From Halorutilales archaeon Cl-col2-1 (lineage in GTDB: Archaea > Halobacteriota > Halobacteria > Halobacteriales > Afararchaeaceae), in assembly GCA_041891055.1 (NCBI GenBank), contig CP169074.1, positions 1,088,001-1,152,000 of the forward strand: 64,000 nt of DNA, in the 5' to 3' direction. Position 1 is the stretch's first letter; each line of letters starts with the position of its first letter. This document shows positions 24,001-27,000 of the stretch, one piece after another. Made by a program: the position numbers.

Positions 24001-27000
24001 GCGAAGGCGAAGGTCTTCGAGGCGCGCGAGGAGAGGGTGAGACCCGACAGGGACGACAAGATACTCGCGGGATGGAACGGTCTGATGGTCTCGGCACTCG
24101 CGAACTCGACGTGTCTCGACGGCTCGGAGGATTATATACGGATAGCCGACGACGCCCTCGGATTCGTGCGCGAGAACCTCTGGGACAGCGAGACACTTTA
24201 CAGAAGATACAAGGACGGCGACGTCGCCGTCGAGGGCTACCTGGAGGACTACGCCTTCGTCGCGAGGGGGGCACTCGACCTCTACGAAGCCACAGGCGAC
24301 CTCGACCACCTCGTATTCTCGCTCGAACTCGCGCGCCGCATAAGAAACGAGTTCTGGGACGCCGACGACTCGACTGTCTACTTCACCTCCGAGACGGGTG
24401 AGAGCCTCGTAGCGCGTCCACAGGAGATAAACGACTCGTCGACGCCTTCGAGTCTCGGGGTGACAGTCGATCTCCTTCTCTCTCTCTCGGGATTCGACCC
24501 CGACTTCGAGGAGATAGCCGAGGCGGTGCTCACGACACACGCCGAGACGGTGAAGTCGAACCCTCTCGGCTATCCATCGCTCGCTCTCGCCGCCGACCAT
24601 TACACGAGAGGCTCGTCGGAGATCACCCTCGCGGGAGACGAAGAGACTGTCGCCGACTGGATCGACGAGATAGGTGACATCTACATACCCCACCTCCTAG
24701 TCACGAGACGCCCCAACGATGCCGAGTATGCGGCGGATAGACTCGGGCTCGAAGACGTGCCTCCCGTCTGGAAGGGGAGAGGAACCGAAGACGGAGACGC
24801 GAGGCTGTACGCTTGCAGAGGATTCACGTGTTCACGTCCTCTCTCCGAGGTCGATGAGGCTGTCGACTGGCTGGAGGACAAACGTAACTCCTAATAAGAC
24901 GAATCCGGTACTTCGGGTAAGGTGAGGTGACAGAGCCTGGCCGATCGTGCCGGTCTTGAAAACCGGTAGGCGCAACGCCTCAGGGGTTCAAATCCCCTCC
25001 TCACCGTATTACTGATCCGTGAGGTTTGAACCAGGGAAGGAACTGACCGTGGTTCAAATCCCCTCCTCACCGTAATTTGAGTCTTCTACGCTGACGCTGT
25101 GAGCGACCCATCAAAGAGTTTACTTGAGACTTCTGACGTATCTTGTGTAATGGATGGCGAGGGTGCTTCGAGGAGCTACTCTACACATCTAGCTGCGGGA
25201 GTCGTAGGAACCGTAGGTCTCTACCTTATTGAGGCACGCAACTACCTTCTTTTCCACAGCCTCGTCGAGGTATTCAGCATACTCGTGGCGTTCGCCGTCT
25301 TCGTAATCGCGTGGAACACGCGCGAGAACCTCGAAAACCCCTTCTTAGGCGTGATCGGTGTGGGTTATCTCTTCGTGGGCGGAGTCGACCTGTTACACAC
25401 GCTCGCCTACAAGGGAATGGGAGTCTTCCCCGAGGCGGGTGCCGATCTCCCGACACAGCTCTGGATACTCGGGCGGTATCTCGAATCCGTCTCTCTCGTG
25501 GGAGCAAGTCTGGTAGGTTCTGCGCCTTTCCTCAGACTCAGATCCGAGCCGTATGACCCGTCTCTCAGACGTCTCGTGGCTGTCTACGCCGTAGTCGTAG
25601 GTTTAGGTCTCTTCTCAGTACTTGGCTCCGACATCTTCCCGGCGGCGTATATCGAGGGAGAGGGTCTGACACGGTTCAAGATACTCAGTGAGTACGTCAT
25701 CATAGGGCTTCTGGTAGTCGCAGTCGTACTCCTCCATTCGGGAAGGGAGAGACACGACGAGACCCTGTTCAGACTACTCGTAGCGGGAATCGTACTCAGT
25801 ATCGGCTCCGAGATGGCGTTCACACTCTACGTTGGTGTCTACGACATCTCGAACGCAGTCGGACATTTCCTCAAGTTCGGGTCTTTCTACCTCGTCTACC
25901 TCGCCGTGGTCAAGAACGGTCTCACCGATCCTCAGAGGACAGTTTACAGGAGACTCGCACGGAGAGAAGAAGAGGCACGTAAGTTCAAGAAGGCTGTCGA
26001 ACACTCGGGGCACTCGGTTCTGATAGCCGACGACGACGGCGAGATAGAGTACGTCAACCCCGCCTTCGAGAGACTCACGGGGTACGACGAGGACGAAGTC
26101 GTCGGCAGGACGCCTCGTCTCCTCAGGTCAGAAGAACACGACGACGAGTTCTACGAGAGGATGTGGGAGACGATACGGTCGGGTGAAGTCTGGGAGAACC
26201 AGATTACCAACACGAGAAAGAACGGAGAGAAGTACGTCGCTAGCCAGACTATCGCTCCGATTACTTACGACGGCGAGATACGCAGCTTCGTCGAGGTCAC
26301 TAAGGACATCTCGGAGATCAAGAGACAGGAACAGGAAGTTCTCAACAGGTACGAGGCTCTCTTCAACAGCATAGGTGACGCAATACTCGTCTCAGACACC
26401 CAGAGACACGTGGTGAACGCCAACCCGGCTTTCACGGATCTCTTCGGGTACGACCTCGAAGAGATAGAGGGAGAGTCGTCACGTCTCATATACGAAAACG
26501 ACGACGAGTTCGATCAGGTAGGCGAGGCGATACGCAACGAAGATTCGGGCCGTCTGACACGAACCGTGGAGTACCGAAAGAAGTCGGGGCAGAGCTTCCC
26601 GGGTGAGACCACAGTCTTCGAGATCGAGAACGCCGACGGCGAAGTTGCGGGTCTCATCAGTCTGATAACTGACGTCTCCGACCGTGAGAACCGTATCCAT
26701 CAGATACGTGTACTCGACCGGGTTCTACGCCACAACCTCAGGAACGACATGAACGTGATACGTGGACACGCAGAGCTCATACGTGAGAAGGGAGACGGGG
26801 ACGTCACCGACGACGCCGACAAGATCGTAAGCACGGGCGAGAAGCTCCTCGAAACCGTCTCGAAGGAACACGAGATAACTCGGTTTCTGTCGGAGTCGCC
26901 CCCGGTCGAAACGGTGGATATCTCTGAGACAGCCGAGTCAGCAGCCGAGGAGGCAAGGGAGAGATATCCCGACGCCGACGTCTCAGTTGACGCACCCGAG

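Follow-up and report, generated by a model that had tools for sequence, protein, structure and literature searches.

A hairpin module built from tRNA 3' ends behind haloarchaeal tRNA genes, possibly an RNA element of the 3' trailer

Why would a tRNA gene be followed by an inverted and then a second direct copy of its own 3' end? This arrangement lies behind tRNA-Ser(TGA) in the window, a stretch of 64,000 nucleotides from the genome of Halorutilales archaeon Cl-col2-1 (G000). The parts of the locus and its neighbours, with the evidence for each in brackets, are as follows.

22741-24894, + strand: thioredoxin-like DUF255 protein, upstream neighbour (context only)
24921-25006, + strand: tRNA-Ser(TGA) (ARAGORN; Rfam tRNA, 45.8 bits)
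24985-25006, + strand: T1, first copy of the direct repeat, tRNA positions 52-73, the last 22 nt (sequence; exact-copy scan)
25007-25017, + strand: 11-nt spacer TATTACTGATC (sequence; one substitution against the sister genome G001)
25018-25032, + strand: left arm T', imperfect inverted copy of the tRNA end (sequence; fold)
25033-25050, + strand: apex or core, 18 nt, AGGGAAGGAACTGACCGT (sequence; family alignments; pair counts)
25051-25072, + strand: T2, second copy of the tRNA 3' end, exact over 22 nt, right arm (sequence; exact-copy scan)
25099-27336, + strand: MASE3/PAS/histidine kinase, downstream neighbour in the same direction (context only)

The left arm retains its acceptor and T-loop parts and is 6 nt short in the T-stem part, and the element folds with -22.6 kcal/mol (z -2.63). 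The apex can form the pairs G34-C48, G35-C47, A38-T44 and G39-C43 around a GAA loop, with G49 bulged; a tandem G36·A46/A37·G45 can also be drawn, which is our reading of a place where RNAfold puts a small internal loop. T2 is 21/22 identical in G001, a sister genome of about 93% identity. When the locus was searched against Rfam 15 the tRNA alone passed, all other matches lying far below their gathering scores; an earlier note on this DNA had likewise given nothing for Rfam.

The 43 tRNAs of G000 were scanned for exact matches of at least 16 nt to their own 3' ends within 400 nt downstream. Eleven tRNAs have such a copy; upstream copies were found at 0/43 and exact inverted copies also at 0/43. 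The earlier view that the elements form a genuine family linked to the 3' ends of tRNAs is upheld. All ten loci named at that time were recovered, and the total becomes 11 with the addition of Gln-CTG (C1:1922264-1922470). Arg-TCG, Leu-TAG and Leu-CAA additionally have short forms, in which the copy spans no more than about 10 nt, and weak additional elements lie behind Met-CAT and Leu-GAG. With our borders 8/11 elements fold at z <= -2.17, where 9 of 10 had been given. At Val the unit is repeated 12 times in tandem, and arrays likewise occur at L069, L074 and L095. The element always lies 3' of the tRNA and on its strand; real copies of the module were found behind tRNAs only, and the arms vary with the tRNA. 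A miniature inverted-repeat transposon (MITE), which should recur unchanged at many unrelated sites, bounded by terminal inverted repeats and flanked by a fixed target duplication, was rejected on this distribution.

Across the order, the strict pattern was matched in 44/151 genomes, compared with 0/151 for a reversed-pattern control, and in a sample of the phylum it was matched in 24/47 genomes within the order and 0/254 beyond it. Our covariance model R1 matched 102/150 genomes of the order at E<=1e-6. In the phylum sample it matched 15/18 genomes within the order and, beyond it, 0/132 at E<=1e-6 and 4/132, all of one genus, at about 3.5e-4. In the samples searched, the module family was found in the haloarchaeal order alone. 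The claim that most genomes of the order carry it and none outside holds at 102/150 against 0/132, while the figure of 139 of 151 could not be reproduced at our threshold. A single IMG/VR match had also been reported; our pattern gave seven, all by chance and none a real element. No description of these elements was found in the main texts of the open-access literature searched.

The direct repeat has its left border at tRNA position 53 (G53) and its right border mostly at the discriminator, ending 0-2 nt from it in 55/80 elements. At some loci the repeat continues into the flank, so that the right border is variable (up to about 53-68 nt), and at Thr-GGT the flank is present as an inverted copy as well. 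The exact right arm that had been claimed is typical but no rule: in other genera 52 elements were compared, of which 31 match exactly, eight have one mismatch and 13 have two to seven. In 6/21 non-exact T2 copies the difference from the tRNA is at the same T-loop position, 57, and in L107 and L130 the left arm still matches the tRNA although T2 has decayed. T1 and T2 evolve in concert, as do the two copies of the flank (Arg-GCG flank variants). Because the repeats evolve in concert and the copy decays in many genera, the right arm can be exact without selection acting on it. A left border fixed at position 53 and a repeat of 21-22 nt resemble the footprint of site-specific recombination; such a border is not predicted by an RNA function, and it counts against the RNA reading given below.

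At the T-loop the arms are paired to about 0.9-1.0, and towards the acceptor part this drops to 0.4-0.7. Over the whole arms G·T combinations (78) do not exceed A·C (85), and the changes in the left arm match the ordinary GC->AT bias. On these figures the outer arms decay neutrally. Covariation between the long arms from one tRNA to the next follows by construction from their common source, the local tRNA, and is no proof of selection.

The inner hairpin behaves differently from the arms in that its conservation across genera equals that of the tRNA. In it the T-loop sequence GTTCRAATC pairs with its complement; two G-C pairs (GG/CC), the tandem G·A and a covarying Watson-Crick closing pair follow, and the tip is variable. 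The terminal structure measures 5-36 nt and the apical stems covary. Of the 78 rows scored out of 85, 55 have G-C, 20 A-U and two G·U as the closing pair beside the tandem G·A. In the given structure 87.0% of positions are paired compared with 80.5% after shuffling, a value of 87.0% being reached in 0/500 shuffles, and sliding the partners gives at most 47.1%. The earlier claim that the family is kept as a folded strand thus stands for the core, on the closing pair and the slid-partner comparison, and does not stand where it relied on long-arm covariation. In the inner stem G·U (35) is in modest excess over A·C (22), one pair that the search patterns limited to C/T being left aside. Some lineages, such as L008, replace the G·A by Watson-Crick pairs.

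Conservation of the hairpin is specific to the tRNA-sense strand, which scores 55-72 bits compared with 22-33 bits for the antisense strand at the same places. The sense fold is the more stable in 71/79 comparisons, and the purine-rich G·A motifs are present on the sense strand only. At Val loci of six species, orthologous or paralogous, a core of about 45 nt is nearly invariant while the promoter and distal flanks cannot be aligned, and the Met element is kept in seven Haloferax species while T2 drifts.

Comparison of G000 with G001 showed that 7 of about 37 comparable loci differ in the element, so single copies are dispensable. Gln-CTG and Gln-TTG give clean filled/empty pairs and Pro-TGG one further pair. 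The elements gained or lost have very imperfect left arms, and for this reason all of these polymorphisms may be losses. Compared with G001, G000 also has 0.9-11.4 kb of additional DNA immediately behind four element-bearing tRNAs. In G000 the variable DNA behind the Phe, Ile, Arg, Val, Glu-TTC and Gln-TTG elements encodes kinases, a PIN protein, a TumE/HVO_A0114 pair and similar genes, and no integrase was found in it. At L122 and L112 a tyrosine integrase lies between the tRNA and a T copy preceded by a stem-loop, and a canonical hairpin then follows. The continuation of the repeat past the tRNA, the empty sites in the sister genome, the tandem arrays and the integrase-bearing inserts at the same loci are all new over the earlier note.

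The element is transcribed along with the tRNA in one model organism. At L193 the raw reads of runs X22 and X23 give a depth of about 390-670 on the tRNA-sense strand across both elements and about 0-94 on the opposite strand. Coverage stays at about 500 past both elements without a drop, so the element is no terminator at L193, and an intrinsic terminator was rejected. Read starts and ends form no pile at the hairpin borders in these libraries, which are not of the small-RNA type. Splicing was also rejected, as no joints were seen at a depth of about 500, a joint between identical repeats being hard to see. The 18 RNA runs whose contigs contain all L193 words are uninformative on expression because they cover about whole genomes.

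The reading we prefer, at a probability of roughly 40%, is a 3'-trailer RNA hairpin born by duplication. The module, of about 45-140 nt in the order tRNA, spacer, inverted copy, conserved apex and direct copy, would have arisen at the DNA level through a tRNA 3'-end duplication with T-loop position 53 as its anchor. The conserved working part would be the inner hairpin in its tRNA-sense fold. RNA would be its simplest working form, a stable GA-motif hairpin in the tRNA 3' trailer or a read-through transcript, and we infer that it may serve as a protein-binding or structural element in the handling of such transcripts. Remnants of the birth event would survive in the outer arms and in the exact copy of the acceptor part, held tRNA-like by gene conversion between the direct repeats, and recombination between the same repeats would remove the module. 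The constant position and strand, the conserved core, the folded-strand signals and strand asymmetry, the transcription at L193, the concerted evolution of the repeats and the independence from one integrase family speak for this reading. Besides the fixed left border, the lack of read piles at the hairpin borders, the unbroken coverage past the element, the modest G·U excess and the dispensability of single copies speak against it.

The main rival, possible but doubtful in our judgement, makes the hairpin the attachment structure of small, mostly cargo-less cassettes that a tyrosine recombinase inserts at the tRNA T-loop, regenerating the tRNA end; the conserved apex and bulge would be features for recognition and strand choice. 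Folded-strand recombination sites are known from integron attC and the single-strand attP of CTX phage, and by analogy haloarchaea might run a counterpart at their tRNA genes, with the T-loop as docking site and the GA-motif hairpin as mobile attachment structure, a joint proposal that we consider unlikely. The constant start of the repeat at G53 with its end near the discriminator, the filled/empty Gln and Pro pairs, the tandem arrays, the inserts at L122 and L112 and the variable tip all suit such insertion, and a crossover inside the T-loop would yield the recurrent difference at position 57. The direct repeat of a tRNA 3' part that marks tRNA-targeting integrative elements is present in 11/43 tRNAs of G000 and in 52 elements of other genera. 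Published haloarchaeal elements reportedly leave 22-nt and 27-bp tRNA-end repeats and have an integrase at the right end (PMC3119063, PMC7002104), and the SNJ2, pR1SE and HSTV2 integrase families are reported from Halobacteria only (PMC8371274). Against this, the canonical modules of 45-140 nt have no ORF and hence no integrase gene, integrases being found in the larger neighbouring inserts at L122 and L112. Gene cassettes between the repeats are likewise lacking, and no integron-type integrase was shown (the search, in G000, used PF00589, with 11 matches, and no IntI-specific model). A free circular form with the attachment site was not found in IMG/VR, where no canonical hairpin occurs, nor by blastn against plasmids with one 96-nt query, nor in SNJ2, Halfgib1, HRPV9, pHK2 or a Haloarcula plasmid; these last five have no T-loop hairpin and were rejected as virus or plasmid attP sources, and four free replicons with related integrases lack the hairpin. 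Hairpins and SNJ2-type integrases are also uncoupled (family f7, 13/13 and 5/13 genomes; f17, 4/12 and 11/12; f11, 8/9 and 3/9), and f7 in particular makes the hairpin independent of one integrase family. Each element suits its own tRNA alone, which leaves the rise of new specificities unexplained, and the gains and losses between G000 and G001 may, as noted, be losses throughout.

A functionless by-product is improbable. Template switching during replication at the near-palindromic T-loop (TTCGAA) could give an inverted triplication, later spread and kept by gene conversion only, and this would fit the direct-inverted-direct order with its inverted flank at Thr-GGT, the variable right border, the neutral decay of the outer arms and the frequent losses. 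However, a common apex separates the inverted from the direct copy at every tRNA and in every genus, something that template switching does not provide, and the core stays conserved next to saturated flanks and shows compensatory A-U and G-C changes. A trans-acting antisense role, in which a left arm released from the hairpin binds tRNAs at their T-arm or 3' end, or else the reverse strand acts as exact antisense to the tRNA end, seems very improbable: the inner left arm is complementary to a near-universal T-loop and stays matched in L107 and L130, but antisense reads are few and a stable hairpin locks the arm away. Introns of archaeal tRNAs can sit in the T-loop, and excision of everything from the first copy up to the apex would join the tRNA body to the second copy and restore an identical tRNA. 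This spare 3' end or intron is nevertheless scarcely credible, as the L193 reads contain no joints (with the reservation already made), no bulge-helix-bulge motif could be drawn and T2 has decayed in 21/52 elements. An origin by reverse transcription was rejected with 0 RVT_1 matches in G000 (99.5% complete), and a link to IS200/IS605 with one Y1 transposase in G000 and no core-like motif seen in about 340 nt upstream of its gene.

If the RNA reading is right, a widespread unannotated part of tRNA transcription units exists throughout an archaeal order and offers a way into the question of how tRNA trailers and read-through are managed in archaea. As a recombination site the hairpin would be the first attachment system of the folded-strand kind to be described from archaea and would explain tRNA loci as hot spots of gene-content change. 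In either case annotators should not read the copies as prophage borders or tRNA fragments.

Among known systems, the att repeats of haloarchaeal integrative elements share with the module a 21-27-nt tRNA-end repeat from the T-loop region, an intact tRNA, empty sites in relatives and integrase-bearing inserts (L112, L122). The module differs in having only 45-140 nt and no gene between the repeats, an inverted copy with a conserved GA-motif apex, and vertical conservation across genera with none found on free viruses or plasmids. It may resemble integron attC and CTX attP as an imperfect, strand-specific hairpin with conserved inner inverted boxes (...AAC / GTT...), unpaired or bulged bases (here a bulged G, beside the tandem G·A), a variable 5-36-nt tip and a repeat border at G|TT; unlike in attC, its boxes are near the tip and not the foot, its arms are tRNA-specific and there are no cassette genes. 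The tRNA-like 't-elements' of Haloferax volcanii are reportedly RNAs with borrowed tRNA features that adjoin tRNAs or rRNAs, whereas the T-loop sequence of the hairpin is paired and not looped, giving no tRNA shape.

Methanopyrus kandleri has a palindrome about 10 bp behind about half of its tRNA genes, with a proposed role in 3' maturation (PMC5217627). It is likewise lineage-specific and behind tRNA genes, but much shorter (CGTTA-N9-TAACG), without a tRNA-end copy and in another lineage. For H. volcanii a stable tRNA-His trailer of about 60 nt has been described (PMC3495736). In G052, which may not be that strain, the tRNA-His trailer measures about 137 nt to the end of T2; the 60-nt trailer therefore cannot be identified with the hairpin, and the link was rejected.

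An H/ACA-like guide was rejected because our reading of the alignment shows no open pocket. K-turn and K-loop motifs are bound by L7Ae. A canonical K-turn was rejected, since the tandem G·A is conserved but the alignment has no 3-nt bulge, and some lineages (L008 again) have Watson-Crick pairs instead. The core shares with these motifs a tandem G·A, presumably sheared, beside a Watson-Crick stem, and many tips read C-GA-(loop ending in U)-GA-G.

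The element behind tRNA-Ser(TGA) consists of a spacer, an inverted copy of the tRNA end (left arm), an apex and a direct copy of the tRNA 3' end (right arm). Its parts in the window are as follows.

24921-25006, + strand: tRNA-Ser(TGA)
25007-25017: spacer of 11 nt behind tRNA-Ser(TGA)
25018-25032: left arm, CGTGAGGTTTGAACC
25033-25050: apex, AGGGAAGGAACTGACCGT
25051-25072: right arm, an exact copy of the last 22 nt of tRNA-Ser(TGA)

The left arm matches the reverse complement of the tRNA end imperfectly: the acceptor and T-loop parts are present, and six T-stem bases are missing. 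As RNA, a 59-nt stretch of the element has a computed fold of -22.6 kcal/mol (z = -2.63). A DUF255 thioredoxin-like gene flanks the tRNA and its element on the 5' side and a MASE3/PAS/histidine-kinase gene on the 3' side, both on the same strand. The tRNA-Lys(TTT) gene (window 12725-12802, - strand) has no copy of its own end within 400 nt.

The Cl-col2-1 genome has 43 tRNA genes, 11 of which (Phe, Thr-GGT, Lys-CTT, Ser-TGA, Leu-CAA, Tyr, Val-GAC, Ile, Arg-GCG, Leu-TAG and Gln-CTG) have an exact copy of their own 3' end, at least 16 nt long, within 400 nt downstream. Upstream copies and exact inverted copies were found at none of the 43. Short forms, limited to roughly the final 10 nt, occur after Arg-TCG and also follow the long forms at Leu-TAG and Leu-CAA, and a covariance model of the element (R1) added weak elements at Met-CAT and Leu-GAG. 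At the Val-GAC locus (L053, C1:1463973-1465850) the tRNA is followed by an array of 12 identical tandem 81-nt hairpin units; after the array come an armless piece of left arm plus core and a TumE / HVO_A0114 gene pair; these are missing from the sister genome G001. Other recurrences of tRNA-end 15-mers were only paralogous tRNAs or classical distant att-type repeats, such as those of Glu-CTC (57 kb distant) and Gln-TTG (4.9 kb distant). Outside the window, about 57 kb (C1:1277907-1335129) separate tRNA-Glu(CTC) from a duplicate of its 3' portion reaching upstream of the T-loop, with three tyrosine-recombinase matches at 1330-1334 kb; this looks like a classical integrated element.

A pattern scan of genomes of 185,579 species gave at least 120 stretches. 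Among the matches listed, 54 of 80 loci were haloarchaeal, counted by titles, and the others were scattered at about the chance level calculated in advance. The haloarchaeal matches listed share the consensus GGATTTGAAY-CAGGGAG-[tip]-CGACCGWG-GTTCAAATCC and lie 40-230 nt 3' of tRNAs of nearly any kind, including intron-bearing tRNA-Trp and tRNA-Met. The strict pattern matched 44 of 151 genomes of the haloarchaeal order and its reversed control none of the 151; in a phylum sample the strict pattern was found in 24 of 47 genomes within the order and in none of the 254 outside it. For the genus Haloferax the count was 18 of 22. At E<=1e-6, R1, built from 51 sequences picked by regular expression, matched 102 of the order's 150 genomes (82 of the 99 of good quality), with families f9 (0/6), f13 (0/4) and f14 (2/13) nearly devoid of matches. 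In the phylum sample R1 matched 15 of 18 genomes within the order and, at E<=1e-6, 0 of 132 outside; at E of about 3.5e-4, four of the 132 (G229, G250, G264 and G301, all one genus) had a single match each (29.5 bits, 101 nt). The family was not found in the full-text literature searched, whose reach stops short of supplements and most subscription journals.

At the DNA level the element is a duplication module anchored at the T-loop. The repeat starts at G53 throughout, at times at position 52, and ends 0-2 nt past the discriminator in 55 of 80 tRNA/copy pairs; in 12 of the 80, tandem arrays among them, it extends at least 11 nt into the flank. Long repeats are seen at Arg-GCG (21+19 nt) and Thr-GGT (21+9 nt, the flank being present also as an inverted copy), and in G001 at Pro-TGG (~53 nt) and Ile (~68 nt). 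Over 21 nt, the copy was identical to the tRNA in 31 of 52 elements, differed once in 8 and had 2-7 mismatches in 13; loop position 57 is A in the tRNA and G in the copy in 6 of the 21 imperfect elements. The repeats evolve in concert and elements are lost through them. At Arg-GCG one variant pair is present in both flank copies of Cl-col2-1 and a different pair in both copies of G001, which demonstrates concerted evolution of the two repeats. Unusual T-loops (TTCGATT, TTCAATT; L112:3960-4023 and L203, the tRNA-His locus of genome G052) have the matching variant in copy and left arm.

G001 is the sole genome of the same genus, with ~93% identity over the Ser locus, and the comparison covered its 37 recovered tRNAs. 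The element is common to seven loci, and seven loci differ. Gln-CTG has the element in Cl-col2-1 and a clean empty site in G001, and elements at Gln-TTG, Pro-TGG, Leu-TAA and Arg-TCG (long form) occur in G001 only. At Lys-CTT, G001 retains the left arm and lacks 70 nt; at Phe, the break in homology falls within the left arm. Left arms of the polymorphic elements are very imperfect, so the differences may all be losses by recombination between repeats, with no proven recent gain. The G001 element at Gln(TTG) is intact and directly 3' of the tRNA; in Cl-col2-1 a partial copy, which spans roughly the anticodon region through the 3' end, lies 4.9 kb from that tRNA (C1:1799511-1804600), with a decayed hairpin element immediately 3' of it. 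Behind four element-bearing tRNAs, Cl-col2-1 has extra DNA that is absent from G001 (1.2 kb at Arg, 1.6 kb at Ile, 0.9 kb at Val and 11.4 kb at Phe), and none of it contains an integrase.

The inner hairpin is strand-specific and under selection. Across six Val loci, taken from different species, a ~45-nt core is nearly invariant while promoter and distal flanks cannot be aligned, and seven Haloferax Met loci retain the core while the acceptor portion of their copies drifts. For the pair adjoining the tandem G·A, 62 apex variants include 46 with G-C and 10 with A-T; a model-based alignment with 78 scored rows of 85 has 55 G-C, 20 A-U and 2 G·U at this pair. Tips that are short form perfect stems of 4-5 bp with varying sequence, and long tips are purine-rich with additional GA…GA closures. 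The structure of alignment A2 is 87.0% paired; shuffling gives 80.5%, none of 500 shuffles being as high, and sliding gives no more than 47.1%. Part of the column invariance in A2 is built in, because the sequences were picked by motif. Scores at identical places were 55-72 bits for the sense strand and 22-33 bits for the antisense strand. Inner-stem G·T outnumbered A·C by 54 to 9 in A2 and 78 to 22 in a further alignment, A3, an excess mostly at a single pair, Y opposite G53, which the search patterns limited to C/T; leaving out this pair, the counts were 35 and 22.

The earlier note had given weight to covariation in the arms. Across whole arms of 79 elements there were 1282 Watson-Crick, 78 G·T, 85 A·C and 188 other pairs, left-arm changes were mostly GC to AT, and pairing decays with tRNA position, from 0.87-1.0 at 54-59, through a drop from 0.96 to 0.60 over 61-65, to 0.41-0.70 at 66-72. 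These counts and this decay lead us to attribute the arm covariation mostly to inheritance from the local tRNA.

The element is co-transcribed with its tRNA in the one organism for which reads were mapped. Raw reads of four runs were mapped to L193, which contains two tRNA-Asp genes and two elements. For runs X22 and X23, tRNA-sense depth is ~390-670 from behind the tRNAs across both elements, which are thus transcribed as read-through; it persists for at least 650 nt beyond them, antisense to convergent ORFs. Depth is ~0-94 on the opposite strand of the same stretch and ~115-260 over the tRNA genes. Reads over L193 had no joints listed, and no pile of read starts or ends marked the hairpin borders; as the libraries were not of small-RNA type, these reads speak neither for nor against a discrete hairpin RNA. 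A terminator reading was rejected for the L193 elements, as transcription continues past both. Read-through on the tRNA-sense strand is strong at L193 / L196 (G052) and enters two convergent small ORFs (L196:1586-2274, + strand) in antisense orientation. At L196 ~2330-2400, also in G052, the second of the elements behind tRNA-Asp has its right-arm copy split by a 69-nt insert that contains internal inverted repeats, and at L008 the right arm is also interrupted, by GC hairpins.

Of the readings considered, the one ranked first, tentatively and at a probability of about 40%, is that the hairpin acts in cis as RNA within the tRNA trailer; a recombination site acting as a folded strand ranks second and is somewhat less likely. 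Two genome papers (PMC3119063, PMC7002104) report haloarchaeal integrated elements whose right ends carry repeats of the tRNA end, of 22 nt and 27 bp, beside the integrase. At loci L122 and L112 the tRNA and a further copy of its end are separated by a tyrosine integrase; a stem-loop precedes that copy and a canonical hairpin then follows. These integrases share 34-42% identity with those of pleolipoviruses and other haloviruses. The hairpin was absent from the free replicons examined (SNJ2, Halfgib1, HRPV9, pHK2 and a Haloarcula plasmid) and among IMG/VR matches, and its presence by family is uncoupled from that of the integrase; these results count against dependence on these integrases. Cl-col2-1 has 11 PF00589 matches, one Y1 transposase and no reverse transcriptase.

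In the integrase-bearing insert of L112, a longer partial tRNA-Phe copy lies upstream of the middle copy and holds a 48-nt stem-loop piece exactly before GTTCAAATC, the core-to-copy junction of canonical elements. A second module recurs in the spacers; in it a T-rich run is followed by a GC stem with a GA…GA closure around a loop like GAACAA-N-GTGA. It follows both tRNA and copy, for example at Phe of Cl-col2-1 (L050) and at L112, L126, L062, L107 and L091, and its stem has compensatory changes among Haloferax species.
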